A DNA stretch of 64,000 nt, taken from contig JAZOWE010000006.1 of NCBI GenBank assembly GCA_045659085.1, positions 47,320-111,319 on the forward strand. The letters run 5' to 3'. Below are positions 1,095-61,894 of this stretch, piece after piece (within the stretch, counting starts at the first letter, position 1; each line of letters begins with the position of its first letter). This DNA is from Tidjanibacter sp. (GTDB taxonomy: Bacteria; Bacteroidota; Bacteroidia; Bacteroidales; Rikenellaceae). A program made the position numbers and the translations under genes. Below the pieces are notes generated by a model. That model searched no databases and was not told where the DNA came from. It saw only the letters and a list, made by a program, of their open reading frames with translations.

Positions 1095-2078
1095 GGAATT
1101 GAAAATGGAAAATTTAGGTGCGCCTGTTGCGCAGTCAACCGTCGACCGCCTACCGACAAATTACCACCTATATTCGCGGGTATCTTTTTTAATACCCGAG
1201 AGGGTTGGGGGCATCTCTTTATAAGTAAGGAGGGTTTCCTCCCTCGTTCTCGGGTATCTTTTTTAATACCCGAGAGGGTTGGGGGCATCTCTTTATAAGT
1301 AAGGAGGGTTTCCTCCCTCGTTCATGGGTATCTTTTTTAATACCCGAGAGGGTTGGGCATTCCTCTCTCTTTTTAGATAGTTCCCCTCCTTTGATCACGG
1401 GTATCTTTTTTAATACCCGTGAACAAGGGAGGGGTGAGGTAGGGGGCAAGAGAAACAGGGGTGACAGGAGTGACAGGAGAAACAAGAGAAACAAGAGAAA
1501 CAAGAATCCTGTCTTTCCTGTTCTCCCTGTTTTTCCTATCTTTCTTGTCTTTTCCGTCTTTCCTCTCGGGCGCCCCGCGCCCGCAGTCGGTTGACGGTAG
1601 GCGGTCATCGACAGACAAAAAAACACAGAGAGCGGAGGAAATTTTGTGCCAAACAAGAAGGCGAGTCCGCGGTTTGCCAAGAATTGGTAGAGGTCAAAAA
1701 GGAATGATATCGTGGAGGGAATTTTTTGCGAAATAAGAAAGCGGCTCCGCAGTTTGCTTGACGCAAATGAGGGGTTTCAACAGCAAAACAAGCCACCTTA
1801 GAACAAAAAACGCAGAGAATTTGGCTATTTGCAATAGTAGAGGTTAAAAAAGGAATGATATCGTGGAGGGAATTTTTTGCGAAATAAGAAAGCGGCTCCA
1901 CAGTTTGCTTGACGCAAATGAGGGGTTTCAACAGCAAAACAAGCCACCTTAGAACAAAAAACGCAGAGAATTTGGCGAGTTTTAGGCGCACAAGAAAATC
2001 CCCTTCGCAGTTTACTAAGCGTAAATGAGAAGGGGATTTATCGCAGTGCAACGACAAAATCGTCAATTATATGCGTTT
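1095..2078. repeat. mosaic intergenic repeat island
   Basis: About 4 units of 73-74 bp containing GGGTATC-T6-AATACCC (1177-1425), inverted 9-mer arms (1445-1560), a 151-bp tandem duplication (1689-1976) and three TTTRC-N5-GYAAA cores. Confidence 0.9.
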
Positions 2079-4877
2079 TTACTTCTTTTTAACCTCTACC
2101 TGGTCGTAGGACTCAATAATATCTCCAATCTTAATATCGTTGTAGGACTCGATGTTAAGACCGCACTCCATATTGAGTGTCACCTCCTTAGCGTCGTCCT
2201 TGAAGCGTTTGAGCGAGCCAAGACGACCGGTGTAGATAACGATACCGTCGCGAATCACGCGGATAGGCGCGGTGCGGGTAATTTTACCCTCGCGCACAAT
2301 ACCACCGGCGATAGTACCCACCTTGCTGATTTTGAAGGTTTCGAGCACCTCAACAGTACCCATAATCTCCTCCTTCATCTCGGGCTCCAACATACCCTCA
2401 ATTGCGTCCTTAATATCGTTGATGGCATCGTAGATGATGGAGTAGAGACGAATCTCGATGGCCTCATTCTCGGCAATCTTGCGAGCGCCTGCCGAGGGAC
2501 GCACCTGGAAGCCCACAATTACGGCATTGGAGGCAGCTGCGAGGAGCACATCGCCCTCGGTAATCTGGCCCACAGCCTTGTGGATGACATTCACCTGTAC
2601 GGTCTCGGTGGAGAGTTTGAGGAGCGAGTCGGTCATAGCCTCAATCGAGCCGTCCACATCGCCCTTAACGATGATGTTGAGCTCCTTGAAGTTACCGATA
2701 GCGATACGGCGACCAATCTCATCGAGGGTAACATGTTTCTGTGTCTTGATACCCTGAATACGCTGCAACTGCTCGCGCTTGGTTGCAATTTCGCGTGCGC
2801 TCCTATCGTCGTCCATCACATTGATTTTATCGCCTGCCTGTGGTGCGCCATTCAGACCGAGCACCTGTACGGGGGTTGCGGGACCTGCGGCAGCCACCTT
2901 CTGACCGTGCTCATTGAACATAGCCTTCACACGACCTGTGTGCGTACCCGAGAGGATAACATCGCCTGTGCGGAGCGTACCATTCTCAACGAGGACTGTT
3001 GCCACATAACCGCGGCCCTTGTCGAGCGACGACTCGATAACCGAGCCGACAGCTTTCTTGTTGGGGTTGGCTTTAAGGTCGAGGAGTTCGGCCTCCAAGA
3101 GCACCTTCTCCAAGAGTTTGTCGAGGTTAATACCCTGCTTTGCCGAGATCTCCTGCGACTGATACTTGCCGCCCCAATCCTCCACGAGGTAGTTCATATT
3201 GGCGAGCTGCTCTTTGATAGCGTCGGGGTTGGCGGAGGGTTTGTCAATCTTGTTGATTGCGAAGACCATAGGCACTCCTGCTGCCACTGCGTGGTTGATA
3301 GCCTCAACGGTCTGGGGCATAACCTTGTCGTCGGCAGCCACAATGATAATTGCCACATCGGTCACCTGAGCACCACGCGCACGCATCGCCGTGAAGGCCT
3401 CGTGACCGGGGGTATCGAGGAAGGTGATGGTCTTACCCTCATACTTCACGCTGTAAGCACCGATGTGCTGGGTGATACCACCCGCCTCGCCGGCGATAAC
3501 ATTGGTCTTGCGGATGTTGTCCAGCAGCGAAGTCTTACCGTGGTCCACATGGCCCATAACGGTAACAATGGGTGGACGAGCCACGAGGTCCTCCTCTTTG
3601 TCGGCGACATCCTCAATAGCCTCCTGAATCTCCACGCTCACAAACTCCACCTTGAAGCCATACTCCTCGGCAACAATAACGAGGGCCTCGGCGTCGAGAC
3701 GCTGGTTGATGGACACCATAAGGCCGAGGTTCATACAGGTTGTGATAACATCCGTAACGCTCACATTCATCATTGTTGCGAGGTCGCTAACGGTTACAAA
3801 CTCGGTGAGTTTGAGAATCTTGCTCTCGCTCATCGACTGTTCAAATTCGGCCTCCATACGCTCTGCCACAGCCTGGCGTTTCTCCTTGCGGTGAACCGAG
3901 CCTTTGCTCTTACCACCCTTGGCCGTGAGCCTTGCGAGGGTATCCTTAATCTGTTTCTGCACCTCCTCATCGCTCACCTCGGGGCGAACCACAGGCTTGG
4001 GTGCATTCTTTTGTTTGTTCTTCTTATCCTTCTTGGAGGTAGGCTGCTGGTTGTTGTTCTGACCACCACCCTGCTGCGATTTACCACCTCCGTGCTGAGG
4101 TTTGGTTACATCAATTTTGTTGTCTTTGATGCGTTTGCGCTTCTCGCGGTGCGAGGGCTCTGCGCCTTTGCGAAGGCTATCGACATCAATCTTACCCAAC
4201 ACCTTGGGGCCCGCAATGTTGTTCTGCTCCAAGCGGAAAACCTCCCTCTCGGCCAGACGCTCATCGTAGGTTTTCTGCTGTGCCTCGGCATCTGCCACGG
4301 GAGCCTTGGGCTCGGCGGGCGCTGCGGGTTTGGGTGCTGCGGGTTTGGGGGTAGCCTTAACCTCGGGCTTAGGCTCGGACTTAACCTCGGGTTTAACCTC
4401 AGGTTTAGGCTCAGGTTTAGGCTCAACTTTGGGTGCAGGTGCTGCCTTAGGTGCAGCGGGTTGCTCGCTCACCTTTTGGGGTTGTTCCTTAGGCTCGGCA
4501 GGCTTTGCGGGAGCCTCCGCCTTGGGTGCACTCTTGGGTTCGAGGTCAATCTTACCCAAAACTTTGGGCTGTGGCACCTCGGTGCGGATGAAACTTCCGC
4601 TCTTGATAACCACCTCCTGCTCTTCGGACTTGTGCTCCTTCTTGTCGCCCAACGACACACTCTCCTGTTTGAGGTTCATGCGCTCGCGGACATTGGCCCT
4701 CTCACCTCCGAGGTGATTGCCGCCAAACTCTTTCTCCAACAAAGCATAGACATCGCTCTCCACCAAAGTGTTGGGCGCAATATCCTTAATACCCTTTTTT
4801 TCGAGAAAGTCGGTAATGGTACCCAGACCAACCTTAAACTCTCTTGCAACCTGTACGAGTCTCAGTTTTTTCTCCAT
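2079..4877 (-). CDS. infB: translation initiation factor IF-2
   Basis: [16 protein letters not shown] and NKID G-domain motifs; lies downstream of nusA. Confidence 0.99.
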
Positions 4878-4914
4878 TTGTTTCTATTTTATTTGTTATT
4901 TCTTTTTCTTTCTT

Positions 4915-5318
4915 CTCCGCTTTTTGTAAAAAGCGGAACCAAAAACTTTTAGTGTAGCCACCACTCTGTGGTGCTATCCACCGACTTGCTTCGGAGCCAT
5001 CCTCACAATCGCGTCACCCTGACGCCTTTTTGTAAAAAGCGGAACCAAAAACTTTTAGGCGATACTGCGTATCGCTTACTTAAATTGAAAATTGACAATG
5101 GAAAATGGAAAATTAAGGTGCTCCCTTTGGTCGCAGTTTTATATTCGTGCCGAAGGCACACCACAACTTTCAATTTTCAATTTTCAATTCCCTACGCGAG
5201 TGCATATCGCGAGGCGAGTTCAAGGCTTGGTTTCGATTTTGCTCCGCAGTTTACTAGCGGTAAATGAGGAAGCAAAATCGAAAGCATAACGCCGAAAACA
5301 CCCGCAAGATGCAGTAAA
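4915..5318. repeat. composite repeat between nusA and infB
   Basis: Two CTTTTT-GT-AAAAAG palindromes, inverted GAAAAT(T/G) arms (5081-5190) and a 120-bp GCGAGTGCATATCGCG element that recurs at 61769. Confidence 0.85.
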
Positions 5319-6542
5319 TTACTCGAATTCGGCACGGAGGATACGAACAACCTCCTCAATAGTCTCCTCCTCCAAGTCGGTACGCTTTGCAAGCTCCGCG
5401 TTGGAGAGTTCGAGCACGCTCTTGGCGGTGTCGCAACCAATGCGTTTGAAGGCGTCGATAATCCACTGTTCAATCTCGTCGTTGAACTCGTCGAGATCGA
5501 CATCCTCCTCGTCGGCATCGCGGAATACATCGATGTCGTAGCCCGAGAGCATCGACGCAAGGCGGATGTTAAGACCACCCTTACCGATAGCGAGCGACAC
5601 CTCGCTGGGTTTGAGGTATACCGACGCGGTCTTCTTGGCCTCGTCGAGTGAGATGGAGGTAATCTTTGCGGGGTTGAGTGCGCGCTGGATGAGGAGTGTG
5701 GTGTTTGCTGTCCAGTTTACGACATCGATATTCTCGTTCTTCAACTCCTTAACGATGGAGTAGATACGCGAGCCCTTAACACCCACACAAGCACCTACGG
5801 GGTCGATGCGGTCGTCGTACGACTCCACAGCGACCTTGGCCCTCTCGCCGGGGATGCGGACAATTTTCTTGATGGTGATAAGGCCGTCGAAAATCTCGGG
5901 CACCTCTGCCTCAAAGAGTTTCTGCAAGAACTCGGGGGCAGTACGCGACAAGATGATAACGGGAGTATTGTTGCGCATCTCAACCTTCGAAACAATAGCT
6001 TTGATGTTGTCGCCCTTGCGGAAGAAATCGCTGGGAATCTGCTCTGCCTTGGGCATTACGAGTTCGTTACCCTCATCGTCGAGCACCAAAATCTCCTTCT
6101 TCCACACCTGATAGACCTCGCCACTGATAATGTCGCCTACCCTCTCGCTATATTTCTCAAAGAGGTTTGCTTTCTCCAAGTCGAGGATGCGCGATGCGAG
6201 GTTCTGACGGAGCGAGAGCACTGCACGACGGCCAAACGAAGCCATCTCAATCTGGTCCGACACCTCTTCGCCCACCTCGTAGGTAGCGTCGAGTTTGCGT
6301 GCCTCACTGAGGGCAATCTGCTGGTTGGGATTCTCCACGGCGCCATCCTCCACGATGATACGGTTGCGCCAAATCTCCAAGTCGCCCTTTTCGGGGTTGA
6401 TGATGACATCGAAGTTTTCGTCTGTCTCGTAGGTTTTTTGGAGGTGGTGGCGGAAAACATCCTCCAACACACCAATCATTGTACTTTTGTCGATGTTTTT
6501 AAGCTCCTTAAACTCGGCAAAATTGCTAATCAAATTCTCCAT
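5319..6542 (-). CDS. nusA: transcription termination factor NusA
   Basis: S1/KH motifs (IDPVGACVGVKGSRI, LAIGKGGLNIRLA). Confidence 0.99.
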   Translation of the reverse strand: MENLISNFAEFKELKNIDKSTMIGVLEDVFRHHLQKTYETDENFDVIINPEKGDLEIWRNRIIVEDGAVENPNQQIALSEARKLDATYEVGEEVSDQIEMASFGRRAVLSLRQNLASRILDLEKANLFEKYSERVGDIISGEVYQVWKKEILVLDDEGNELVMPKAEQIPSDFFRKGDNIKAIVSKVEMRNNTPVIILSRTAPEFLQKLFEAEVPEIFDGLITIKKIVRIPGERAKVAVESYDDRIDPVGACVGVKGSRIYSIVKELKNENIDVVNWTANTTLLIQRALNPAKITSISLDEAKKTASVYLKPSEVSLAIGKGGLNIRLASMLSGYDIDVFRDADEEDVDLDEFNDEIEQWIIDAFKRIGCDTAKSVLELSNAELAKRTDLEEETIEEVVRILRAEFE

Positions 6543-6683
6543 TGTCTTTTGTGTTTTTATATTTTGTTGTTTTTGTTTCGTTATAATAATACCTGATACT
6601 CATGACGAGGTTCAGCGCTATTGACTATTTTTCAACAAATATGTCATTCTTACTTTACCTTCATCATTCATATAAAACTTACC

Positions 6684-7295
6684 TTATTCATCCTTAATAT
6701 CAAGATTGACTTTATCCTCATATCTACCATATTCCTCCAAACCCTCTTCTCCATCGAAGTAGTAACCATACTCGGTTGTCAGAACAATTTTTCGCGTTGT
6801 TAAGTATTTGTTGCTATTGGGCGCATAAAATCTCAAATAAAACTCACAATTCCCCTTTTCTCCTTCGAAGGCAACAGCTGTTGTTGTGTACCACACATCC
6901 CCAACATGCCGCCCGACATCTATATTGGCAGAAAGAACAACAAACGCTCCCTCCCAATCATTGTGTTTTTCGGATAACCGAATCTTCGTATCCCCAACAC
7001 AATCAATCCAACAATAGACTTTTTCGCTATGTGGATTGAAGTTGCAGGTTAAATAAGGTTGATAAAAACCCACAACATAGGAATACAAACTATTCTCTTC
7101 ATTGTCGGTCATCCAGTAGCGCTGAAACGACTCACACTCTCGTTCATCAATCTCAGACAACAACATCATGTCGACCAACTCATACTCCGTATTGCTATCT
7201 GGACAAGGGTATGTTGCATCAATTGTAGGTTGCTCACACGCCACAAGCGACATTACAAATAACACAACAGACTTAACCAACAATCTTTGAATCAT
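6684..7295 (-). CDS. hypothetical lipoprotein (AT-rich insertion)
   Basis: 203-aa ORF with lipobox-like LVAC; visibly more AT-rich than flanking genes. Confidence 0.7.
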   Translation of the reverse strand: MIQRLLVKSVVLFVMSLVACEQPTIDATYPCPDSNTEYELVDMMLLSEIDERECESFQRYWMTDNEENSLYSYVVGFYQPYLTCNFNPHSEKVYCWIDCVGDTKIRLSEKHNDWEGAFVVLSANIDVGRHVGDVWYTTTAVAFEGEKGNCEFYLRFYAPNSNKYLTTRKIVLTTEYGYYFDGEEGLEEYGRYEDKVNLDIKDE

Positions 7296-7334
7296 ACCGC
7301 TCTCTTATTGCAATATCCAACACTCCACAGGGCA

Positions 7335-7559
7335 CTCCTTAAGTTTCCATTTTCAATTCCACTCCGCGAGTGGGTTTTGCGGAGGGGATTTTTGCGCCCC
7401 TCAACCCCGCAAGATGTGCTCGCAAGGCACACTCGAAGCGAGTGCATATCGCGGAGCAGATGCAAGGCTTGCGTAGCGCGAGAAAGCGGAGTTTACTCAA
7501 AGTAAATGAGCATTTCGAGCGCAAGCGTAACGCAGCAGATGCCCGTGAGATGCGCTCGC
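7335..7559. repeat. GCGAGTGCATATCGCG / TTTAC-N5-GTAAA repeat element
   Basis: Close to the copy at 36110-36229; ends at the rimP stop codon. Confidence 0.85.
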
Positions 7560-8024
7560 CTAATGAAAGTCGAGATATTCCTTCACCCACTTAATCTGCG
7601 AGAACAAGTGGAACTCCTCAACCTCCACCTCGACTTTGCGTTTCTTGCCCTCCACAAGGCGACGCTCCGTGTAGGAGAGTGTAATACCCTCGGGCGACAC
7701 CTCTTTGAGCGTTGCGAGCATCTTCACGCCGTTCACGAGCAGCACCTCGACACTCTCGCCCACGAGTTTGTAGTATTGGCGTAGCAGTTTCAGGGGTTGT
7801 CCCACGCCTGCCGAAAATACCGAGAGTTCGTAGTCTTCAACCTCCCTGTCAAAAGCCTCTTCGATTTTGCGGCTCAGCTCCACGCAGGCGTCCAAATCGA
7901 CACTGCTGTCGGCATCAATCACCACCTCAATCTCGTTTGCGGGCGAACATTTCACATCGACCACAAAGCGGTCTGTTCCGTCGAGGGCGGCCTCTGCCAC
8001 CTCCCTAATTTTTGCTACATCCAT
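7560..8024 (-). CDS. rimP: ribosome maturation factor RimP
   Basis: LDACVELSRKIEEAFDRE, YELSVFSAGVGQPLK; first gene of rimP-nusA-infB; start set at MDVAKI. Confidence 0.95.
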   Translation of the reverse strand: MDVAKIREVAEAALDGTDRFVVDVKCSPANEIEVVIDADSSVDLDACVELSRKIEEAFDREVEDYELSVFSAGVGQPLKLLRQYYKLVGESVEVLLVNGVKMLATLKEVSPEGITLSYTERRLVEGKKRKVEVEVEEFHLFSQIKWVKEYLDFH

Positions 8025-8060
8025 CTCTTTCAGCGTTATACTTACCATTATACTACGAAA

Positions 8061-8579: not shown

Positions 8580-8581
8580 TA

Positions 8582-8614
8582 GAATTGAAAATTGAAAATT
8601 GAAAATTGAAAATT
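8582..8614. repeat. (GAAAATT)n heptamer array inside the phage-like operon
   Basis: gaattgaaaattgaaaattgaaaattgaaaatt; same unit as the host intergenic repeats. Confidence 0.85.
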
Positions 8615-8649
8615 ATGGTGCATCTTGGATGCGAATTTTAATTCCCGCG

Positions 8650-9123: not shown

Positions 9124-10374
9124 TTAGGCTGTTTTAGAGTTGTCTGTTTTTGAAATTTGTGCCAGAAAGATTTGCTGTGCGGGATCGTCGGGGTTGTAAT
9201 CCAAGCCGTCGGCCATACGGGCCTCCCAAACGCGCATATATTCGGGTTTGGAGCGCGAGGGTGGGCGGTTGATGATGTCGAGCGACGAGCCGTTTTCGCC
9301 CAGAATTTCGCCAATCAGCAGTCGTATAGGGTCCAATAGTTCCTCTTGTTCGCCCAGGATCACGGTATTGAGAGCCACCTCCCATTCGTGGAGGATGCGC
9401 TCCGACGAGAAGCCCGTGGCGTAGTCCAGACCGCTGATGCTGCGGAACCACGAGTGAGCCACCACAATATCCGACACCGCCTGTTCGTGCAGCGCCTCCC
9501 AATCACCCTCGTTGGAGGAGGAGATGGGTATGAAGCGCGACGAGTCGCCATCGCCACAATCCTTAACCATAAACATCACCTGTCCGGGTTTGCCTGCAAA
9601 CTTACGCTCGGCCGTTTTCACAAACTCTTCGGCATCTTTCTCGTTGTCCACTCCCCCGTCGAGGAGCATAACACCCGAGAGTTGGAAGGAGTTGTCCAGT
9701 CGCGAGATGTTCCAATTGTCGGTTTTGTAGGCTATGGTCGAAACGCCCAGGCCGGCAATGTAGGGTGGCACGCCATAGTGCGAGAACATTGGTTCGTAGT
9801 CCTTGAAGTGAATGAGCGAGTGGAGGTTGCCATCCTCGCCCTGCTCAAAGAGTGGATAGAGTGGCAGAGATGCGCTCTCGGCAGCCACATAGTGGCTCCA
9901 ATCGTGGTGGAGTATGGCGCGAGTGCCATCTTTGGCGAGTCGGCAGCGCGAGGCGTCTTGGTGGAAGAGTGCGAGGAAGGAGTGCGCCTCGTCGGTCACA
10001 ACCTCCACAAAGGCGTTGCCAAAGAGAGCCTTGTCGAGAGCCAAATAGTTGAGCACCTGACGCAACGACTCGCCACGGGAGTTTGCTCTGGCAATAAAAC
10101 TCTTGGTTCTCACGGCTCTGTCGTCAACAATAAAACCCTTGCCCGAGATGTAGTCTGCCTTGTCGTTGATTATGCGACGATGAATGGTGGCTCGGCGAGC
10201 GAGAAGCGAGAGCGCGTTGGGAAACAGATTGTCGCTTCCCCACTTCCAGAAGTCGCTACCCGCACTCCTCGACGAAGCACTACTGCCAATCGTAATGCCC
10301 ACATCGAGTGGCGATGAGGCAGCTCGCGGAGTGAAAATTTTTGGTTTGTAACTCTTTTTGTTATTATGTTCCAT
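9124..10374 (-). CDS. phage portal protein
   Basis: 416 aa; WGSDNLFPN, HRRIINDKADYISGKGF and YGVPPYIA resemble Bacteroidetes phage portals. Confidence 0.8.
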   Translation of the reverse strand: MEHNNKKSYKPKIFTPRAASSPLDVGITIGSSASSRSAGSDFWKWGSDNLFPNALSLLARRATIHRRIINDKADYISGKGFIVDDRAVRTKSFIARANSRGESLRQVLNYLALDKALFGNAFVEVVTDEAHSFLALFHQDASRCRLAKDGTRAILHHDWSHYVAAESASLPLYPLFEQGEDGNLHSLIHFKDYEPMFSHYGVPPYIAGLGVSTIAYKTDNWNISRLDNSFQLSGVMLLDGGVDNEKDAEEFVKTAERKFAGKPGQVMFMVKDCGDGDSSRFIPISSSNEGDWEALHEQAVSDIVVAHSWFRSISGLDYATGFSSERILHEWEVALNTVILGEQEELLDPIRLLIGEILGENGSSLDIINRPPSRSKPEYMRVWEARMADGLDYNPDDPAQQIFLAQISKTDNSKTA

Positions 10375-10395
10375 AAGAAGTCGGTTTTGGAGATA

Positions 10396-10436
10396 AGGGG
10401 GGTGCCAACGAGATTTGGCCTCCCCCCTCTTTTTTT
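10396..10436. terminator. GC-rich hairpin between the tail-tube-like gene and the portal
   Basis: aggggggtgccaa-cgagat-ttggcctcccccct followed by a T run on +. Confidence 0.55.
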
Positions 10437-10439
10437 GGT

Positions 10440-10922
10440 TTAATCAATATAGTGGCACGAGGGGCTACCGTCTGTCGAGCATAGAGTCACCGAGAGAGAG
10501 GTTCGTTGCTCCTTGCTGCTGCCACTGTCGAGCCTAACCTCCGAGAGCCTTAGCGGATAGTCGGTAGCGGCAAGCGCGGAGTAGCCAACAAGCAGTTTCT
10601 CGCCACCGTGCAGTCCCACAACCGCCACCATACCCTCTTGCGAGAGCCTTCGAAGCTCCTCCACAACACCGTCCTGCAAGCCGCGCAGTGCAAATCGTAG
10701 TTTGTGGTGGGTGGTACCGTCGGGCTCCACAACCTCTTCCAGCCAGGCGCTCCCCTCGGCAAAAGCAACATCACAAAACCCGCACCCGTCGATGGGCAGT
10801 AGCGAGCTAAAACACCTCTCGGCGGAGTCGTACGACAGCGAGCCTATCTCGGATGCCGACAGCAGCCTGATGGAGCTTAACCCTCCGAGGTGTTTGGCGC
10901 AAGAGATAGAACCCAAAGTCAT
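10440..10922 (-). CDS. putative tail tube (major tail) protein
   Basis: 160 aa, beta-rich; N-terminal CAKHLGGLSSIRLL resembles the C-x3-GG(I/L) motif of Bacteroidetes phage tube proteins; follows the capsid gene. Confidence 0.45.
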   Translation of the reverse strand: MTLGSISCAKHLGGLSSIRLLSASEIGSLSYDSAERCFSSLLPIDGCGFCDVAFAEGSAWLEEVVEPDGTTHHKLRFALRGLQDGVVEELRRLSQEGMVAVVGLHGGEKLLVGYSALAATDYPLRLSEVRLDSGSSKEQRTSLSVTLCSTDGSPSCHYID

Positions 10923-10923
10923 A

Positions 10924-12189
10924 CTACTTCAAGTTTTTGATTACAAACTCGCCACCATAGTAACTGCGCAGGATGATGTCATAGCTTGCGACATCTCCGC
11001 TGTCGTGACTATAATATGCGTTGTCTTCGTCATAGTCCATCACCATCTTCTCGGCAATCAACTCGCCCGATGCATCATAGAGGTTGACTTGCACATCTGT
11101 CACCCACAAAGTGCCGTCGCTCAAACCAGGGATATAGGTATTCACAACCCACTCATCCTCATTTACTTCGGTTTGGATTTTTGTGATATTCAGGCCGAGA
11201 GCGACGGTTACCAACTCGGGGAAGAGGAAGTCGCAACCGGCCATAAAGATAGCCCTCTGACGGTTCTCCATAACATCGGGGTTGTACCACATACGCACCT
11301 CGGTACCAGGGAAGTCGTTGGTATTGACGGCAAGTGCGAGATTGCGACGGTCGGTGAGGAAGGCGAACGATTTGGGCATATCGTAGACCTCGTCGGTCGC
11401 ATAGTTGTTCAATCGGAGGTCAATGACGGGAATACCGCGATAGTAGAGTCCCTCGCGACCACTCTGTTTTGCGAGATATGCCGCCTCAATAGCCACACCG
11501 TCGAGTTCCTCCTCGTAGGCGTTGTAGACATCGGTGCTGACAAAGAATGCCAGCTGGCCCTCGGAACGCTGCGCACGCAGGGTGTCGGTGGAGCTGTCCC
11601 AAAGCTGTTTCAGGAGAGCCTCTGCCCATCCCTCTTTGCTGTTGGGAACATAGGCCAGACGCACCATTGCATTCTCGCCCGTTGTGGGATCCTCATTCTC
11701 GTCGTGCTCCATAAATCGTTTGATGAAGCCGTCGAAGGTGGCAAGGGCCTCCGTATCACGCTCGGTATTGCCGAGCCACATTGTTGCGCGGATACTCTCG
11801 GCAATGGATGCGCGGAAGAGGTTGGTTTCGGCCTCTTCGAGCTCGGTACCCGAGAGGTCCTCGAAGTTTACATCCGAACGCGAGGCAATCATCTCGAAGA
11901 CTGTCGAGAAGTAGTCCTCGGCGGAGTATGCCATCTCGGCCTTCACTTTGTGCATCTGGATGGTTTTCTGCAATTTGGTTGCAGGCTCGCCACCACTCCA
12001 ACCGCTCGAAGTGTATTTGCGCAAAATATCGCCATTGCGCTTCCAGAAATGGAGGGTTGTGGGTACGGGGGTGTTGTACATCACCTTAATACCGAGCTGC
12101 TCGGCATTCTCGCCGGTGAGCATGGGGCGGAAAAAGATAGTGTCGAGATTTTGACCTTCGTAGGACTTGATTTGTTCGATTTTGCTCAT
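10924..12189 (-). CDS. putative major capsid protein with C-terminal extension
   Basis: 421 aa, directly downstream of the head protease; HK97-like pattern (FVSTDVYNAYEEEL, YYRGIPV). Confidence 0.7.
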   Translation of the reverse strand: MSKIEQIKSYEGQNLDTIFFRPMLTGENAEQLGIKVMYNTPVPTTLHFWKRNGDILRKYTSSGWSGGEPATKLQKTIQMHKVKAEMAYSAEDYFSTVFEMIASRSDVNFEDLSGTELEEAETNLFRASIAESIRATMWLGNTERDTEALATFDGFIKRFMEHDENEDPTTGENAMVRLAYVPNSKEGWAEALLKQLWDSSTDTLRAQRSEGQLAFFVSTDVYNAYEEELDGVAIEAAYLAKQSGREGLYYRGIPVIDLRLNNYATDEVYDMPKSFAFLTDRRNLALAVNTNDFPGTEVRMWYNPDVMENRQRAIFMAGCDFLFPELVTVALGLNITKIQTEVNEDEWVVNTYIPGLSDGTLWVTDVQVNLYDASGELIAEKMVMDYDEDNAYYSHDSGDVASYDIILRSYYGGEFVIKNLK

Positions 12190-12253
12190 AGTTTTGTTGG
12201 TTTTTGTTGGTTATAAAATAGTTTTGTTGGGGTACTTTTTTTTTGGGGGGGGA

Positions 12254-13216
12254 TTATTTACCACCTCTTGCAAAGGCCGCACGCATTCCCTCCACATCTG
12301 CCATATAGGCACTCTCGTTGGATGTTGCAGCCACCAGACCGCTTGGTGCAGGGTCTTCACACTCTTTGGTGAGCGTTGGTCGTGCGGTGTGAAGTCGCGA
12401 GGGTGGAACGGGTGGCGCTCCGAGCTCTTTTTTGTCGGCATAGGAGGGCTCGGCAATTGTTGTGGTGCTTACCACCTTGCTTTCGGCTGCCACATCTACA
12501 CCCCTGCCGATACGCGAGAGTACCCTATTCCACGCCTCTGCCAGACGCTCCCCGAGGGGTTTTGCGGGGAGTGGTGTCAGACCGAGAGCCTCCACCTGCG
12601 AGCGAGCATCGTCGGTAATTGGCGATGAGGCGATAATCCTATCGGCCAACCCTGCTGCCACACACTCCTCGGGCGAGAGCCACACTCCTTTGCCACTATT
12701 GCGATTCATAAGTGCCCTGAACTCCTCTGCCGAGCGCCCCGAAGCGAGCGCATAAATCTCTGCCAAACGCTCATCGCTCTTATCAAGAAGCTCTTTGGTT
12801 GCCAACAGCGAGTGGGTGTTACCCTCCACAGTACTCTCGCAACAGTGGATAAGATAGAGCGCATTTGCCGACACCTCGCGAGCCCCTGCCGAGGCTGCCT
12901 GTGCAATGATTGTTGCAGCCGATGCGACATAACCGTAGCAACGGGTTACCACCTCCACCCCGAGCGAGCGTGCAGCGTCGTAGATGAGCAGAGCGTCGGC
13001 CAGACAGCCGCCCGTCGAGCGGATGTTGAGCACCAGGCGGTCAATCTTTCCCTCGGCACGAATCTCGTCGAGGGCCTTTTCAAATTGCTCGTAGGTCGAA
13101 ACCCTGCCCTCGGCAGCCTCGCCAAATTGCTCCTCTTCGGGCACCCCCAGCACCCCATCAATATCAATTGTGGCGATGCGTAGTGAGGAGTCTCTTTTTC
13201 GTTTATTTTCTTCCAT
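12254..13216 (-). CDS. ClpP-type prohead maturation protease with C-terminal scaffold-like tail
   Basis: NIRSTGG, VASAATII (catalytic Ser) and LIHC (His) ClpP motifs. Confidence 0.85.
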   Translation of the reverse strand: MEENKRKRDSSLRIATIDIDGVLGVPEEEQFGEAAEGRVSTYEQFEKALDEIRAEGKIDRLVLNIRSTGGCLADALLIYDAARSLGVEVVTRCYGYVASAATIIAQAASAGAREVSANALYLIHCCESTVEGNTHSLLATKELLDKSDERLAEIYALASGRSAEEFRALMNRNSGKGVWLSPEECVAAGLADRIIASSPITDDARSQVEALGLTPLPAKPLGERLAEAWNRVLSRIGRGVDVAAESKVVSTTTIAEPSYADKKELGAPPVPPSRLHTARPTLTKECEDPAPSGLVAATSNESAYMADVEGMRAAFARGGK

Positions 13217-13227
13217 AAGTCATTGGT

Positions 13228-13494
13228 TTACTTTGCGTTGTAATAGATATAGTTACTGATTGTTGCGGGCGAGCAGTTCATAGTCACTGCCACACTCTCC
13301 ATTGCGTCCATCTTGGTCATCCCTTCGGCCTGACGCTGAGCCACCATCTTTCGCGCCAAAAAAGCCTTGCAACGAGCCTCCGACAAGAGCCCACACTCGA
13401 AGAGGTGTTCGATAGTGCGACTCGACGACATCCCGCGACACTCTCGGAGCAGCAGTTCTTCGACCGCCACAATATTTTTATCTCTGTGTTTCAT
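13228..13494 (-). CDS. small protein with a putative C-terminal HTH
   Basis: KMDAMESVAVTMNCSPATISNYIY fits a helix-turn-helix pattern. Confidence 0.5.
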   Translation of the reverse strand: MKHRDKNIVAVEELLLRECRGMSSSRTIEHLFECGLLSEARCKAFLARKMVAQRQAEGMTKMDAMESVAVTMNCSPATISNYIYYNAK

Positions 13495-13521
13495 CTTGTT
13501 TACACTCTTTTTTGTAGTTTG

Positions 13522-47400: not shown

Positions 47401-47419
47401 GTTTTTACACCTATATATT

Positions 47420-47459
47420 AAAAAAGGTCGCACTCCAAAAGTGGGGTGCGACCTTTTTT
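47420..47459. terminator. bidirectional terminator
   Basis: aaaaaaggtcgcactcc-aaaagt-ggggtgcgacctttttt. Confidence 0.85.
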
Positions 47460-47651
47460 AGAAGGCTATGAGCCTATTTTATGTGAGTTTCGCGAATTTC
47501 AAAAAAGTTGAAATTCCGAAACTTCCGCTTTATCAAAGAGACTTTTTGAGGCTCTTTGAGCAAGTCCCTCCTTTGCTAAAGGAGGGATTTAGGGAGGAAT
47601 ATAAATACTAAGCAGCCCATGCTGTGGGCAAGGGGCTTGCGGAGCAAGCCC

Positions 47652-47738
47652 TAATGTGAGGTTTTCGGAAATGGCGCAACTGCATTCCCATTATTAACAG
47701 AGAGTTAGTGATGCGCCATTTTCACGAAACTCACATTA
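47652..47738. other. 87-nt imperfect hairpin overlapping the OMP stop codon
   Basis: Terminal IR TAATGTGAG/CTCACATTA; inner AAATGGCGCA/TGCGCCATTT. Confidence 0.7.
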
Positions 47739-48278
47739 TTTTATCTGTCTGCCACCAATAACAAGACCTAAGGAAAGCCCCCAATAGGTGTATTCTCGCA
47801 TCAGAATTTTGCTTTCTAAGGATAAACGAAGAGTATTGAATAGTTCTACCCCTAAGCGAGGAGCAAATGTGAAATGCTGTCTAAACTCATTTGTGGGGCT
47901 ATTAGGAGAAAAATTTGATGCACTCCGTATAGTTTCACCATAACCTATACCGATGCCACCAAAGATATTGAAGGCTCTGTGGGGGCGATAGTTGTAGTCG
48001 GTATAAATAGTAGTATGCTCGTGCCTATATTTTTTCTGCTCTTCTCTACTATACTTTACCACACCGAGTTGCAAACCCATTGATAGAGGGGAATTGGGGA
48101 TATTAAAGCGTATTTCGGTATATACCTCACCAGATTGTGATGTGTCAAAAGAGTCGTGCCCTGCGCCACCGACAAGACCGAGTGCCAACTCGCCCTCTAT
48201 CACTCCCACGCGCTCCTGAGAGTATAAACTATAACTGGCTGCAAAAAGTAGCAATACGCTAATGATTTGCGATCTCAT
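47736..48278 (-). CDS. small outer-membrane beta-barrel protein (AT-rich)
   Basis: Signal peptide, alternating beta strands, FAPRLGVELF. Confidence 0.7.
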   Translation of the reverse strand: MRSQIISVLLLFAASYSLYSQERVGVIEGELALGLVGGAGHDSFDTSQSGEVYTEIRFNIPNSPLSMGLQLGVVKYSREEQKKYRHEHTTIYTDYNYRPHRAFNIFGGIGIGYGETIRSASNFSPNSPTNEFRQHFTFAPRLGVELFNTLRLSLESKILMREYTYWGLSLGLVIGGRQIK

Positions 48279-48286
48279 ACGCTGGG

Positions 48287-48490
48287 TTATTTTAATTCAT
48301 TTGTCGTTATAACACAAGCCTTCACTTGGTTGTTGTATCTCACATATGCATACACTTCACCCCTAGTGATAATTTGTTCATATGCTTTGGTTGCTTTGAC
48401 ATTAGAAGATATCCACGAAGCACTGTCAAAATTATATGATAATCCAAATGTCACATATCCTGAAAACCATTGATAGTAAATGTCTGCTTT
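48287..48490 (-). pseudogene. 5'-truncated ORF remnant
   Basis: 67-codon open frame with no ATG (KADIYYQWFSGYVTFGLSYNF...TNELK*) ending 8 nt before the OMP start. Confidence 0.35.
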
Positions 48491-48768
48491 TCATGTTTGT
48501 TGCGCTTTTCTTTTATTCTTGCTATGAGTTACTCGAATGAGTGACATAGTTCGAGTGGACTACGCTGAATTCTACCATTTGCTTGTATAATTCAGTTTTT
48601 TGAGAAAATGTCCATCGGTGTTGATTTTCTACAAAAATAAGACTTTTTTTTCACACATCACACTCTTTACCCCACATTGTATTATAGAAAAAAAGGTTGC
48701 ACCTTCGTGGGGTGAGACTTTTTTTATGAAAACTTTGCACAATTGGGTATAATTAGAGAAATAAATAT

Positions 48769-48776
48769 TATATTTG
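48769..48776 (+). promoter_or_regulatory. -7 element of the TM2 operon
   Basis: TATATTTG. Confidence 0.6.
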
Positions 48777-48883
48777 TGGGAGAAAGGACCCGTAGAAAGG
48801 ATGGTTCCAAGGCGAAAAAGGGAGAAAATTCGTCTCTTAAAGATTGAAACACACACATTTATTAACTTAAAACCTTTAATGTT

Positions 48884-52109: not shown

Positions 52110-52325
52110 CCCCAAAGAAGACTCCCTGTGCAGTTTGCTTGACGCAAATGAGGAGGGAGTTTATCGCAGTGTAACACCTATTGCAAGAGTGGTTCCAAAG
52201 AAAGAAAATAGCATATATTGCAGAGGGATTTTTGTGCCAAAAGAAGGAGCGAGTCCGCAGCCTACTCTTCGTAGGTGAGGAACTCGCTCTCTGAATTTTG
52301 GTGCAAAAAGCACCTGCAAGATGTG
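52110..52325. repeat. TTTGC-N5-GCAAA repeat element in a convergent gap
   Basis: cagtttgcttgacgcaaatgagg plus TTTTTGTGCCAAA...GCGAGTCCGCAG module. Confidence 0.8.
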
Positions 52326-53873
52326 CTATTTTGCGTAGGCTACGGCACGAGTCTCGCGTATTACAGTAATCTTCACCTGACCGGGATAGGTCATCTCGTC
52401 CTGAATCTTCTTGGCGATGTCGTGGCTGAGCTGCTCGCTGTCGGCATCGGAAATCTTGTCGGCACCAACAATCACGCGCAGTTCGCGACCCGCCTGAATA
52501 GCGTAGGTTTTCATAACGCCGGGATACGAGAGGGCGATATCCTCCATCTCTTTGAGGCGTTTGATGTAGCTCTCAACAATCTCGCTACGAGCACCGGGGC
52601 GAGCGCCCGAAATGGCGTCGCACACCTGAACGATGGGGGCGATGAGCGAAGTCATCTCCATCTCCTCGTGGTGGCTACCTACGGCATTGCAAACCTCGGC
52701 TTTCTCTTTGTACTTCTCGCAGAGCTTCATACCGAGCATTGCGTGTGGCAATTCGGGCTCGTCATCGGGCACCTTGCCAATATCGTGCAACAGACCTGCA
52801 CGGCGTGCGTTCTTAACATTAAGGCCCAACTCTGCCGCCATAATACCACAGAGGTTTGCGGTCTCGCGAGCGTGCTGCAAGAGGTTCTGACCGTAGGAAG
52901 AACGGTACTTCATCTTACCGATAAGCCTTACAAGCTCGGGGTGCATATTGTGGATACCGAGGTCGATGGTTGTACGCTTACCCACCTCGGCAATCTCGTC
53001 CTCAATCTGTTTTTTAACCTTCGACACCACCTCCTCAATGCGTGCGGGGTGGATGCGACCGTCGGTTACGAGTTGGTGGAGTGCAAGGCGTGCAATCTCC
53101 CTGCGCACAGGGTCAAAGCCCGAGAGGATAATTGCGTCGGGGGTGTCGTCAACGATAATCTCCACACCTGTTGCAGCCTCCAAGGCGCGGATATTGCGGC
53201 CCTCGCGACCAATGATTCGGCCCTTAACCTCGTCGGAGTCGATGTTGAAGACGGTTACGGAGTTCTCGATGGCGGTCTCGGTTGCCACCCTCTGGATGGT
53301 CTGCACAACAATGCGTTTTGCCTCCTTGTTGGCGGTGAGTTTTGCCTCCTCGATGGTGTCGTTGATGTAGGTCTGAGCCTCCTGCTCCGCCTCTGCCTTC
53401 ATATTCTCCATCAGCACATTCTTCGCCTCCTCGGCGCTCATACCTCCAATCTGTTCGAGTTTGACATTCTGCTCGCGAATGATGCGCTCAACCTCCTCTT
53501 TGCGCCTATCGAGCGACGAGAGTTGGTTGTTGAGATTGTCTTTGAGTTTTTCGAGTTCGTTGTTCTTCTTGTCCAACTCACTGCGCTGCTGGTTGATGTT
53601 GTTCTCCTGCTGTTTGATACCCTGCTCGCGCTGGTTGAGTTTCTGGTTGCGCTCATTGACGGTGCGGTCGTGCTCCCTTTTGAGTTCGAGGAATTTCTCC
53701 TTGGCCTGCAACTCTTTCTCTTTGCGAATCATCTCGCCCTCGCTCTTGGCGGCGGCCAGAAGCGCCTCGCGACGCTTCGCTACGGTTGTTTTGGTTATCG
53801 CATTCGACACCACAATGTAGACTCCGATGCCCACACTTGCCGAGATAACCGATGCTAATACTATTGTTATCAT
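52326..53873 (-). CDS. rny: ribonuclease Y
   Basis: N-terminal TM, coiled coil, KH ([13 protein letters not shown]), HD (LLHDIGK). Confidence 0.99.
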
Positions 53874-54926: not shown

Positions 54927-54934
54927 CGAAGAAA

Positions 54935-55065
54935 AATTGAAAGTTGAAAATGGAAAATGGAAAATTAAAATTTGCCGAGCACTCGGCACAAAAAAAATGC
55001 GGTCGCAACACATTGCAACCGCACCATAATTTTCAATTTTTAATTTTCCATTTTCAATTCTCCAT
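54935..55065. repeat. MITE-like element with GAAAAT(G/T) inverted arms
   Basis: Arms gaaaatggaaaattaaaatt / aatttttaattttccattttc enclosing two small hairpins; overlaps the rimO 3' end. Confidence 0.75.
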
Positions 55066-56359
55066 AGAGGTCATACTCGTCGTAGTCCGTCACTCGGATA
55101 TCGACCATGGAGCCTATTTCGAGAGGTGTGGTGGTGGGAATAAGAATCTCCTCGTCCACCTCGGGGCTGTCGTACTGTGAGCGTGCAATATAAAAATCGC
55201 CCTCCACACGGTCCACAATAACCCTCATATCCTTGCCAACCCTCTCGCTGTTGAGTGCAAGCGAGATGCGTTTCTGAATACCCATAAGTCTTTCTACCCT
55301 CGCCTCCTTAACCTCGTCGGGAACATCATCAGTCAGGTGGAGTGCCGAAGGGGTACCCTCCTCCTCGGAGTAGGCAAAGGCTCCGAGCCTATCAAATCTA
55401 ACCCTCTGTACAAAGTCACAAAGCTCCTCAAAGTCCTCGTCGGTTTCGCCGGGGAAGCCCACAAGCATTGTTGTGCGCAGAGCAATATCGGGAATTTCGC
55501 GCCTAAGGCGTGCCACGAGCTCCTCGGTTTCGGCCTTGGTGATACGACGACGCATTGCTTTGAGCTGATTATCGGCAATATGTTGGAGAGGAATGTCGAG
55601 GTATTTACACATCTTGGGCTCGTCCCTGAGAACCTCGATAACATCCTGTGGGAAGTCGGTGGGATAGGCGTAGTGCAACCTTACCCACTCCACGCCCTCA
55701 ATGGCACACAACCTGCGCAGCAACTCTGCCAACTTACGCTCGCCATAGAGGTCTTTGCCGTAGTAGGTGGTATCTTGTGCAATGACAATAATTTCCTTAA
55801 CACCCACGGCTACAAGACCTTCGGCCTCCTCCAACACTTTCTCCATAGGCACACTGCGGTGACTTCCGCGAATGAGCGGAATGGCGCAATATGCACAGTG
55901 CCAATTACAACCCTCGCCAATTTTCAGGTAGGCGTAGTGGTCGGGGGTCGTCAGCAGACGGTCGGTTTCGAGTTCGGGGAGATACTCTGCATCCAGAGCC
56001 TCCACAACCTCCTTCAAGCTGCGGGCACCGAAATAATCATCCACTTCGGGTATCTCCTCCCTGAGTTCGTCGGCATACCTCTCGCTAAGGCAGCCCATAA
56101 CAAAGAGCCTTTCGATGCGTCCCTCGGCCTTGGCCTCGGCACACTCCAAGATGGTCTGAATGGCCTCCTCCTTGGCGTCGCCAATGAAGCCACAGGTGTT
56201 GATAACCACAATCTTGGCGTCGTCCGTAGAGTTGGAATCGGTAACAATCTCATAGCCCGCCTCGTCGAGCTGCGCCATAAGGTGCTCGCTATCCACAAGG
56301 TTTTTGGAGCAACCAAGAGTTATGACATTGATTTTCTGCTTTGTACTCATAGCGCTCAT
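55040..56359 (-). CDS. rimO: ribosomal protein S12 methylthiotransferase RimO
   Basis: LGCSKNLVDSE, CGFI, CNWHCAYC radical SAM motif, TRAM domain. Confidence 0.97.
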   Translation of the reverse strand: MSAMSTKQKINVITLGCSKNLVDSEHLMAQLDEAGYEIVTDSNSTDDAKIVVINTCGFIGDAKEEAIQTILECAEAKAEGRIERLFVMGCLSERYADELREEIPEVDDYFGARSLKEVVEALDAEYLPELETDRLLTTPDHYAYLKIGEGCNWHCAYCAIPLIRGSHRSVPMEKVLEEAEGLVAVGVKEIIVIAQDTTYYGKDLYGERKLAELLRRLCAIEGVEWVRLHYAYPTDFPQDVIEVLRDEPKMCKYLDIPLQHIADNQLKAMRRRITKAETEELVARLRREIPDIALRTTMLVGFPGETDEDFEELCDFVQRVRFDRLGAFAYSEEEGTPSALHLTDDVPDEVKEARVERLMGIQKRISLALNSERVGKDMRVIVDRVEGDFYIARSQYDSPEVDEEILIPTTTPLEIGSMVDIRVTDYDEYDLYGELKMEN

Positions 56360-60144: not shown

Positions 60145-60295
60145 TGTTCGTGGGTATCTTTTTTAATACCCGTGAACAAGGGGCGAGGACAAAACAAGGG
60201 GAGCAGGAATGACAAGAGTGACAAGAGAAACAGGAGTCTCTGTTATTCCTGTTATTCCTGTCACTCTTGTCTTTCTTCTCGGGCGCCCCGCAAGG
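60145..60295. repeat. GGGTATC palindrome, inverted 9-mer arms and CGGGCGCCCCGC
   Basis: Same module order as 1395-1585 and 20055-20275. Confidence 0.85.
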
Positions 60296-60303
60296 CACAC
60301 TCG

Positions 60304-61299
60304 CTACAAGAACAATTTCTCGGCAATCTGCACCGCATTAAGCGCCGCACCCTTGCGTATCTGGTCGGCAACACACCAGAAAGTCAGTCCCTTGGGGTTA
60401 GCGATATCCTTGCGGATACGACCAACAAATACGGGAGTTGTTTCGGCAACAAAGAGGGGCATAGGGTACTTCTTCTCGGCAGGAACATCCTCCACAACAA
60501 TACCCTCGGCACCCCTGAAAGCCTCCAAAGCCTCCTCGACCGACACCTCGCGCTCGAACTCCACCCAGATAGCCTCCGAGTGGGCACGAGCCACAGGCAC
60601 GCGCACACAAGTGGCACTCACGGCAATGTCGGAGTGCATAATCTTCTGTGTCTCGTAGTACATTTTCAGCTCCTCTTTGGTGTAGTCTTCCTCCGCAAAG
60701 ACATCGATATGGGGGATGACATTGCCGGCAATCTGGTAGGCGAATTTATTGACCGTCGTAGGCTTACCCTCGGCAATCTCGCGATACTGATTCTCCAACT
60801 CGGCAATACCCATAGCACCCGCACCACTTGCAGCCTGATAGGTGGCCACATGCACACGCGAGATGTGGGCAATCTTCTCCAAAGCCGCAAGAGCCACAAC
60901 CATCTGAATGGTCGAGCAGTTGGGGTTGGCGATAACATTGCGTGGAGTGTTACGCGCATCCTCGGGGTTTACCTCGGGCACCACAAGGGGTACATCCTTG
61001 TCCATACGGAAAGCACTCGAATTGTCAATCATAATGGTGCCGTGTTTGGTAATGGTCTTCTCAAACTCTTTGGAGGTGCCACCGCCTGCCGACACAAAGG
61101 CTACATCAATACCCTTGAAGTCGTCGTTGTGCTGCAACAACTTCACGATATACTCTTTGCCCTTGAAAGTGTAAGTCGTTCCTGCACTGCGCTCACTACC
61201 AAAGAGGTAGAGATTGTCAATGGGAAACTCCCTCTCGGCAAGTATCCTCAAAAACTCCTGTCCTACGGCGCCACTTGCGCCAACAATAGCTACATTCAT
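60304..61299 (-). CDS. asd: aspartate-semialdehyde dehydrogenase
   Basis: [37 protein letters not shown]. Confidence 0.99.
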
Positions 61300-61339
61300 A
61301 TCTTTCTCTTTTTTTAGTTATTTTCCTTTTTTTATTCGC

Positions 61340-61894
61340 CACTTTTTGAAGCATTCTTCGAAGCTTTTTGTAAAAAGCTTCTCTTTGCGACTTTTTATAA
61401 AAAGTCGCCCAAAAATTTTTAGTGTAGCCCTTGCGGTGAGGTGTGGCTATCTTCGCAGATAGTGCAGCAGCCAAATTAGGAGCCCTTCTTCAAACAAGTT
61501 TGAGAGGGCTCCTACTTTGTCCGCCACTCTCCTTCGGAGAGCCTCACACCTCCCCGAAAAAAGTCTGCTCTCAAACTCTCCTGTTTTTTCCTGTTGCTCT
61601 TGTCACTCTTGTCACTCCTGTCACTCCTGCAAGAAAGACAGGAAAAACAAGAAAAACAAGAAGGACAGGAATTTTCAATTCTCAACCCCACCCCGAGTGG
61701 GTTTTGTGGAGGGACTTTTTGCCCTCTCAACTCCGCGAGTGCATATCGTGGGGGCGTCCCTCTATTTAGCGAGTGCATATCGCGAGGCGAGTTCAAGGCT
61801 TGGTTTTGATTTTGCTCCGCAGTTTACTAGCGGTAAATGAGGAAGCAAAATCAAAAGCATAACGCAGAAATCGACCGCGAGATGTGCTCGCCCG
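61340..61894. repeat. composite repeat island
   Basis: CTTTTT-GT-AAAAAG palindromes, 9-mer arms, two GCGAGTGCATATCG modules, TTTAC-N5-GTAAA core. Confidence 0.85.

Follow-up and report, generated by a model that had tools for sequence, protein, structure and literature searches.

A stop-codon-associated hairpin repeat family, ERIC-like in build, in a Tidjanibacter contig and in other bacteria

Why does one short palindromic core recur throughout a 64-kb stretch of gut bacterial DNA, every time on the same strand? The stretch, here called the window, comprises 64,000 nucleotides of Tidjanibacter sp. (Bacteroidales; Rikenellaceae), positions 47,320 to 111,319 of contig JAZOWE010000006.1 in assembly GCA_045659085.1. 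A preliminary description made from the window sequence listed 11 copies of the core TTTRC-N5-GYAAA, all on the + strand, proposed a structure-selected mobile or regulatory family, and drew an analogy with HUH/RAYT transposases and integron integrases and their replication-strand bias. We find that the cores are the apices of long imperfect hairpins, that these belong to a widespread repeat family, and that the orientation of each copy tracks the gene whose stop codon it adjoins.

A pattern scan of the window returned the 11 cores at exactly the coordinates and with exactly the sequences listed before. By chance the pattern is rare: in 100 dinucleotide shuffles it occurred 0.46 times on average and twice at most, and none of the shuffles reached 11. 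The A/G change in the stem was compensated by T/C in 11 of 11 copies, as had been described, and the covariation extends well beyond this R/Y position. The (C/G)AG...TGAG flanks, also noticed earlier, were found in every window copy, and the first loop base was always T. Because TTTRC-N5-GYAAA is its own reverse complement, orientation is set only by the flanks and the loop. A relaxed scan (SAG, a 5-bp stem, a loop and TGAG) added a 12th full copy that the first list lacked, at 52258-52280 (CAG CCTAC tcttc GTAGG TGAG), the stem of which is doubly compensated. With two truncated 5′ halves, the window holds 14 copies (12 full and 2 truncated), 14 in + and 0 in − orientation. Run on the window at E ≤ 1, a covariance model gave 12 matches on the + strand and 0 on the − strand, in agreement with the reported absence of reverse copies; the CCTAC copy was recovered though it lay outside the training set (56.3 bits, E 2e-9). 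Two subfamilies occur in the window: the A type (..GGAGGAAATTTTGTGCCAAACAAGAAGGCGAGTCCG-core-GAACTCGCC..GGTGCAAAA..), which also has a short form, and the B type (..CAAGGCTTGCG..-core-..AGCGTAACGCAG..). The copies are as follows, a slash marking the break of a truncated copy.

1619-1677, + strand: truncated 5′ half, A type, ending inside the apical stem (..GAGTCCGCGGTTTGC/caag)
1694-1835, + strand: element, core TTTGC ttgac GCAAA at 1753-1767; unit 1 of a 151-nt tandem duplication; 43.7 bits
1843-1986, + strand: element, core at 1904-1918; unit 2 of the tandem duplication, 98% identical
1952-2087, + strand: element, core TTTAC taagc GTAAA at 2011-2025; 84.4 bits
5191-5325, + strand: element, core at 5250-5264; 83.8 bits
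7433-7566, + strand: B type, core GAG TTTAC tcaaa GTAAA TGAG at 7492-7506; 109 bits
20407-20544, + strand: A type, core at 20467-20481; convergent site, adjoining the stop of glyA (20537-21817, − strand); 70.6 bits
22787-22920, + strand: B type, core at 22846-22860; between two + strand genes; 106.4 bits
23608-23663 (approximate), + strand: truncated 5′ half, B type (GTATAACAAG...CCGCAGTTTACTAGGCGT/), downstream of rubrerythrin; 22.2 bits, E 0.018
29870-30005, + strand: A type, core at 29929-29943; adjoining the stop of a ppiD/SurA-like gene (29999-32056, − strand); 89 bits
36104-36237, + strand: B type with G-C stem TTTGC/GCAAA, core at 36163-36177; end overlapping the stop of the gene at 36230-37594 (− strand); 99.9 bits
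52118-52178, + strand: short form, core at 52134-52148; unit 1 of an array downstream of rny; 27.8 bits
52202-52337, + strand: A type with variant stem CCTAC/GTAGG, core at 52261-52275; adjoining the stop of rny (52326-53873, − strand); 56.3 bits
61764-61898, + strand: B type, core at 61823-61837; 94% identical to the 5250 copy; adjoining the stop of a penicillin-binding protein gene (from 61895, − strand); 84.9 bits

Every core forms the apex of a long imperfect hairpin. The element measures ~115-140 nt by covariance-model span, and the predicted hairpins, spanning 104-160 nt, are rod-like minimum free energy folds with z of about −8. Terminal inverted repeats are present (e.g. TGAATAAAAAG...CTTTTTATTCA and GCGAGTGCATATCG...). 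RNAalifold, run on 127 aligned copies, gave an apical stem of six pairs with the consensus NNUAC/GUANN and a closing G.U pair. The stem stands on a 3x2 internal loop that is conserved and rich in purines, with 5′ G-S-A facing 3′ G-A, and is bounded by the G.U pair above and a C-G pair below; the earlier description had taken this feature for a bulged G. A K-turn reading of the loop was rejected, as the 3x2 strand lengths do not fit the layout of a 3-nt bulge with tandem G.A pairs. In the helix under the loop, pairs vary freely on both sides; one pair was CG in 60 copies, GC in 48 and AU in 13, with 3-4 broken. On the RNAalifold structure 95.5% of the paired cells were filled by pairs, compared to 75.4% in shuffles, and the covariation score was 0.484 compared to 0.125 in shuffles, 0 of 500 of which reached the observed value; slid partners gave at most 0.138. 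By this pair counting the covariation is strong, and the proposal of a structure-selected family is supported.

Counts outside the window rest on two scans. The exact-pattern scan, over one genome per species, found at least 120 stretches with 129 matches listed, on which the later counts are based; a metagenome scan anchored on the 5′ arm found at least 120 stretches with 121 copies listed. At the R/Y position, the 129 matches listed had AT in 112, GC in 14, AC in 2 and GT in 1. Since the first scan forced the apical stem, we judged the stem on the second. Among its listed matches the stems included TTTAC/GTAAA (68), CATAC/GTATG (19), TGTAC/GTACA (2) and TTTAT/ATAAA (1); all five stem positions were paired in 93 of 121, the TGAG tail was present in 89 of 121 and the loop began with T in 83 of 121. 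Strains differ in the stem at the orthologous site downstream of rny: it is CCTAC/GTAGG, CTTAC/GTAAG or their one-step intermediate, CCTAC/GTAAG.

The orientation of the copies follows the adjoining gene. Genes were called from Pfam matches, existing calls on strain contigs and a codon log-odds caller, which placed 35 of the 49 window genes on the − strand and 14 on the + strand. In the window, 9 of 10 sites adjoin the stop of a − strand gene. At eight sites the 3′ side of the element lies on such a stop (infB, the genes at 5319 and 7560, glyA, the ppiD-like gene, the gene at 36230, rny and the penicillin-binding protein gene), and the base of the predicted hairpin overlaps the stop and last codons by 8-21 nt. 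The hairpin base of the 1952-2087 element overlaps the infB stop codon (2079-2081, − strand). The 5191-5325 element sits between infB (− strand) and a nusA-like gene (5319-6542, − strand), its end ~7 nt from the stop of the latter, and the hairpin at 7438-7559 (−64.4 kcal/mol) reaches the stop codon of the gene at 7560-8048 (− strand). The copy at 22846 does lie between two + strand genes, as had been noted, those for a short-chain dehydrogenase and rubrerythrin. It is the sole window exception to the stop-codon rule and a recent arrival, absent from four of five strain contigs (present in strain L011, absent in L007-L010).

The same relation held elsewhere. Among the matches listed, 104 of 126 copies had an opposite-strand gene on their 3′ side, with its stop at a median of 66 nt from the core centre; in the frame of the element the two flanking genes were −− at 54 sites, +− at 41, ++ at 9 and −+ at 10. 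A model-free mirror test took long open reading frames (ORFs) with their ends 50-100 nt from the centre and compared those lying downstream on the opposite strand with those lying upstream on the same strand. The former were favoured 57 to 11 in the genome set and 32 to 7 in an independent metagenome set, and the stop distances peaked at 56-62 nt from the core centre. In other genomes, both orientations occurred within one 8-kb locus. The uniform + orientation in the window arises because the element's 3′ end sits on an opposite-strand stop and − strand genes predominate, and we conclude that it is mainly a consequence of gene direction. There is a residue, as the four convergent sites and the ++ site of the window are also all +. 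The replication-strand reading suggested in the preliminary description is not supported: an orientation explained by gene direction, which had been named there as grounds for refutation, is to a large extent what we find. That this is a repeat family with gene-linked orientation we consider very well supported.

Copies at unrelated loci were 94-98% identical, and tandem duplications also occur. The array downstream of rny contains 1-5 units depending on the strain, and filled and empty sites were found between strains at 22846 and downstream of a miaB-like gene. This variation in copy number and presence indicates that the element is, or recently was, mobile or recombining, in line with the earlier idea of a mobile family, and much of what differs in intergenic DNA between strains of this lineage is accounted for by the repeats. 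The analogy with HUH/RAYT or integron enzymes fared less well. A Pfam search of window genes and unannotated ORFs found no RAYT, Y1, transposase, integrase or tyrosine recombinase, flanking the motif or otherwise, and when ORFs within 1.5 kb were clustered over the 120 loci listed, the largest protein family was present at only 4 loci.

The extended architecture, beyond the 22-nt core, accompanied nearly all exact-pattern matches listed, and more than 240 copies with the same architecture were found across other genomes and metagenomes. A majority of the genome matches listed were from Bacteroidales (Alistipes, Tidjanibacter, other Rikenellaceae, Bacteroidaceae, Marinilabilia, Anaerophaga and Lentimicrobiaceae); further carriers were Pseudomonas, Zetaproteobacteria, Gallionella, Oligoflexales, a Peribacteria metagenome-assembled genome (MAG) of the candidate phyla radiation (CPR) and Clostridia MAGs. 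Carriage by phages was rejected, with merely 6 matches in 2.9 million viral contigs. The host of the window is a ruminant-gut member of the Rikenellaceae, and contigs with identical proteins came from animal-gut metagenomes. The window is ~86% identical in nucleotides to a MAG of 'uncultured Alistipes sp.' over infB-nusA and glyA, and 84% identical to a Tidjanibacter MAG over rny. No Rfam family matched the element: the window's gathering-score match was a tRNA-Glu only, and at E ≤ 10 nothing relevant appeared over 5150-7650. A full-text literature search by sequence strings also returned nothing relevant. The repeat family is thus one for which we found no description in Rfam or in the literature searched, of a kind already known, namely hairpin elements resembling MITEs (miniature transposable elements with inverted repeats) at gene 3′ ends.

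Two loci may be mentioned separately. In the complete genome of Pseudomonas sp. KNUC1026 (L065, 3900-4620) the element lies between repeated ORF pairs resembling toxin C-termini and immunity proteins, in a polymorphic-toxin locus. In E. coli NCTC86 (L132, 360-490) the pheM-pheS gap holds a hairpin that has the GAG...TGAG internal loop and GAAAC/ATTTC lower helix of the family but a CGTA/TACG apical stem. It is carried by 5 of 5426 E. coli genomes and is possibly another relative of the family.

The two strands of the element do not fold equally. Of the two, the purine-rich + form gave the better fold in 116 of 127 copies (mean −43.5 kcal/mol, complement −35.6 kcal/mol). In the + strand fold we counted 490 G.U pairs (127 of them forced by the search pattern), 24 A.C, 180 purine-purine and 21 pyrimidine-pyrimidine oppositions; the fold of the complement had 314, 91, 16 and 285, respectively. 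The opposite pattern would be expected of a C-to-T bias linked to transcription or replication and acting on the coding or leading strand. Either of two readings would accommodate the asymmetry: the weaker complement may be tolerated, or useful, in the mRNA after the stop codon, or the folded strand may act as single-stranded DNA (ssDNA) or as an antisense or intermediate RNA.

On present evidence we believe the family is probably a non-autonomous interspersed hairpin repeat of ~115-135 nt, MITE-like and ERIC-like in architecture and behaviour. Copies would be spread by a trans-acting mobilisation or recombination activity encoded elsewhere than nearby, and one orientation would be kept beside stop codons through the effect of the hairpin in the mRNA 3′ end. 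With the 3′ end of the element on the stop of the opposite-strand gene, a read-through transcript would carry the reverse complement of the + form 0-10 nt after the stop codon. Terminating ribosomes may melt the part of the hairpin base that overlaps the stop and last codons, and such melting could couple translation to 3′-end processing or decay. That the element plays a part at the RNA level, in the 3′ end of the upstream gene, is possible, and we propose it tentatively.

Several observations weigh against this picture. The better-folding + form is antisense to the abutting gene, and a hairpin selected in the mRNA of that gene should show the opposite. That the two arms of a DNA inverted repeat covary is by itself no proof of RNA function. 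Element sequence is present in metatranscriptome contigs, which suggests transcription; as these are unstranded, of mixed strains and broken at repeats, the sense of the transcripts cannot be read from them. (A practical consequence is that contigs of metagenomes and metatranscriptomes are broken by the repeats at gene ends.) The codon log-odds caller was validated on one held-out contig of a related strain only, where it found 17 of 18 genes with no false positives. Strain comparisons gave no clean target-site duplication or empty/filled junction, and strain differences in the intergenic regions took the form of whole-module replacement, not of clean insertion. As to ERIC itself, the covariance model built on 127 copies gave the E. 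coli ERIC a score of 4.1 bits (E 1.6, 344 nt searched), no ERIC match came from an nhmmer profile made of 237 copies, and an ERIC query run with nhmmer and blastn found no match in 1.6 Mb holding more than 250 copies. Because there is no significant profile or BLAST similarity to ERIC, we describe the family as ERIC-like and do not file it under ERIC.

The asymmetry between the strands bears on two other explanations. The + hairpin with its extrahelical purines could be an ssDNA substrate of an HUH/Y1 (RAYT- or IS200-605-like) or integrase-like enzyme, its orientation mirroring the strand exposed in replication. Good folding is confined to one strand, the one with the G.U and G.A features; the internal loop does not vary, in contrast to the covarying stems; attC sites, too, follow ORF stops and fold on the ORF-antisense strand; and the four convergent sites and the ++ site of the window are all +, a weak regional excess. 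We nevertheless consider this quite improbable. Orientation follows the neighbouring gene at a fixed stop distance, which replication alone does not predict, and it is mixed within 8 kb elsewhere. Genes for RAYT, Y1 or integrase enzymes are neither present in the window nor recurrent near the 120 loci listed, and the consensus has neither a GTAG/CGTC head nor a GTTRRRY core. If the − strand is leading, as the gene excess suggests, the folding strand is the leading-strand template, the opposite of the IS608 paradigm. The + form could instead be a functional RNA, either an independent or convergent small or antisense RNA or the 3′ untranslated region of the 5′-side gene, with its 3′ end overlapping the stop of the opposite gene. 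Such an RNA would call for a promoter of its own at 54 of the 126 listed sites, which have opposite-strand genes on either side, and no such promoter is evident. At 41 of the 126 the 5′ neighbour is co-directional, its median distance to the core being ~142 nt, and the fold asymmetry with its RNA-like G.U and G.A features favours the + sense. A T-run in the + sense follows ~20% of the 129 copies listed, which is a minority. We regard it as unlikely.

Ordinary host terminators, intrinsic and often bidirectional, could also stand directly after stop codons, and shared constraints might then give unrelated, immobile hairpins the look of a family. Both an A-run before and a T-run after the element were found in 18 of the 129 copies listed, and at ~35% of those at convergent sites. 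This account appears very improbable to us, as U-tracts are missing in ~80% of copies, several copies lie within operons (e.g. nusA-infB), copies at unrelated loci are nearly identical or in tandem arrays, presence differs between strains, and an invariant 22-nt core across phyla is not a property of terminators.

The window contains further repeats and features. Intergenic arrays with a 9-nt period lie at 1432-1564, 20061-20262, 24261-24318, 26267-26452, 35999-36072, 60194-60300 and 61580-61671; they include CCCTAAATA repeated ~14 times and GAGCGACAA units, and a complementary array is often next to them, forming long inverted structures. A second hairpin repeat family, TGTTCACGGGTATC-T6-(G/A)ATACCCGTGAACAAGG, occurs at 1171-1433 (four units with a 74-nt period), 20050-20091, 24319-24360, 26171-26212 and 60145-60186. 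Two of its copies border a strain-variable insertion at 24353-26366, which is 2.0 kb long with two ORFs without Pfam matches; strain L007 has 87 nt there and L009 a different three-gene insert. Another strain-variable insertion, of 1.5 kb at 47392-48883, holds an ORF resembling an outer-membrane beta-barrel protein (47736-48278) and is replaced by 219 nt in L001, L002 and L006. Runs of the heptads GAAAATT/GAAAATG, at 1081-1121, 5081-5121, 8581-8621, 20005-20045, 22713-22767, 54933-54987 and 55040-55075, adjoin many of the hairpin elements, and the complement of the last of them encodes the final residues and stop codon of the miaB-like gene.

The − strand block at 9124-16886 is possibly phage-derived or like a gene transfer agent, with a weak Phage_portal match at 9124-10374 (below the Pfam cut-off), a ClpP-like protease at 12254-13216 and large ORFs without Pfam matches at 10924-12189 and 13522-15894. 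On the + strand at 43603-47400 lies a gene for a 1265-aa protein consisting almost wholly of WG-containing beta repeats, with 23 stretches matching PF14903, and many of the window's direct-repeat families stem from it. Long 'shadow' ORFs at 2025-4952 (+), 43975-47433 (−), 29852-32047 (+), 34265-35896 (+), 41039-42619 (+) and 52275-53858 (+) run antisense to infB, the WG-repeat gene, the ppiD-like gene and the genes for a TPR protein, RNase G and RNase Y. None has a Pfam match, and a gene call by longest ORF would choose the wrong strand for infB.

Among known systems, the REP/BIME and REPIN repeats resemble the family in being extragenic, multicopy palindromes at gene 3′ ends that are thought to act as hairpins. 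REPs are 20-40 nt long with a GTAG or CGTC head (PMC3733652), whereas the family elements are 115-135 nt long, their consensus lacks such a head, and no RAYT gene occurs in the window or recurs near the copies listed; membership in the REP/RAYT class was rejected on these grounds. Integron attC sites share with the family an imperfect hairpin right after the ORF stop, a folded strand that is antisense, conserved unpaired bases and one orientation per array. They differ in that the family has no R′/R″ GTTRRRY core (the complement consensus reads GTTACGC/GTTATGC), no intI in the window, and housekeeping neighbours (infB, nusA, rny and glyA) in place of cassettes, and attC membership was likewise rejected. 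The Correia/NEMIS, RUP, SPRITE and Porphyromonas BrickBuilt repeats are non-autonomous, 100-200 nt long and co-transcribed, and sometimes serve as terminators or RNase substrates (PMC2229807, PMC10969869, PMC4596501). Their descriptions set them apart from the family, with no report of this core, of spread across phyla or of a fixed stop spacing.

In build and behaviour, ERIC appears to be the closest known analogue. ERIC-type hairpin repeats have been known since 1990, and reviews treat them as gammaproteobacterial. ERICs, of ~127 bp, and the family are alike in size and in forming a single long rod-like hairpin, and both are intergenic, multicopy, strain-variable and without a linked transposase. 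We located an E. coli ERIC copy through the ERIC1R/ERIC2 primer core (..GGAGCTTACATAAGTAAGTGAC..). Its apex reads GAG-CUUAC-AUAA-GUAAG-UGA, closed by a G.U pair and bearing a GA/GA loop, against the family layout SAG-NNTAC-loop-GTANN-TGA, and the exact CTTAC/GTAAG stem is also found in a family copy of strain L001. The short flanking motifs AAGGC, AGCG(T)AACGCAGA and AGCGAACGCAGA are common to both. As in the family, the adjoining gene, ybhI, runs on the opposite strand and has its stop 66 nt from the core centre, and the fold asymmetry (−54.0 vs −44.3 kcal/mol) has the same direction. In Yersinia, ERICs overlapping or next to stop codons reportedly prefer one orientation, and translation-coupled 3′-end processing or decay is said to have been proposed for the stop-codon-proximal ones. 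ERIC is described as a ~127-bp MITE at gene 3′ ends with orientation-dependent effects of RNase E (PMC2229807, PMC3184786, PMC10969869, PMC2267715). It differs in its 2x2 internal loop (3x2 here), its apical loop of 4 nt (5 nt here) and its adjoining helix, and the TA duplication and TATA termini of ERIC are not demonstrated for this family. Reviews confine its range to Enterobacteriaceae and Vibrionaceae (PMC10969869, PMC3184786), compared to Bacteroidales and several phyla for the family. A local alignment to ERIC scored 16.9, a weak excess over shuffles (15.2 ± 0.54, z ~3; reverse complement 14.3). True homology with ERIC is possible, and we do not presume it.

The interest of the family lies in an apex conserved across phyla, a fixed spacing to the stop codon and a well-folding strand that is antisense to the adjacent gene. 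An ERIC-like build with stop-linked orientation is now seen in gut Bacteroidales, and the 22-nt apex also in Pseudomonas, Zetaproteobacteria, CPR and environmental metagenomes. More speculatively, ERIC and this family could be branches of one ancient cross-phylum superfamily with the apex G-S-A / G.U-NNUAC-loop-GUANN / G-A, in which the folded, antisense strand, as ssDNA or as antisense or intermediate RNA, is the substrate of a factor that acts in trans and sets down copies at a constant spacing from the stop; we think this rather unlikely. If such a superfamily exists, its broad distribution would let the ERIC-type mobilising activity be found by phylogenetic profiling. Should the mechanism be shared with ERIC, the stop-codon spacing would point to a link with translation termination or 3′-end processing, the wide host range would make the mobiliser searchable by co-occurrence, and the conserved apex would be a candidate binding site of a widespread factor.

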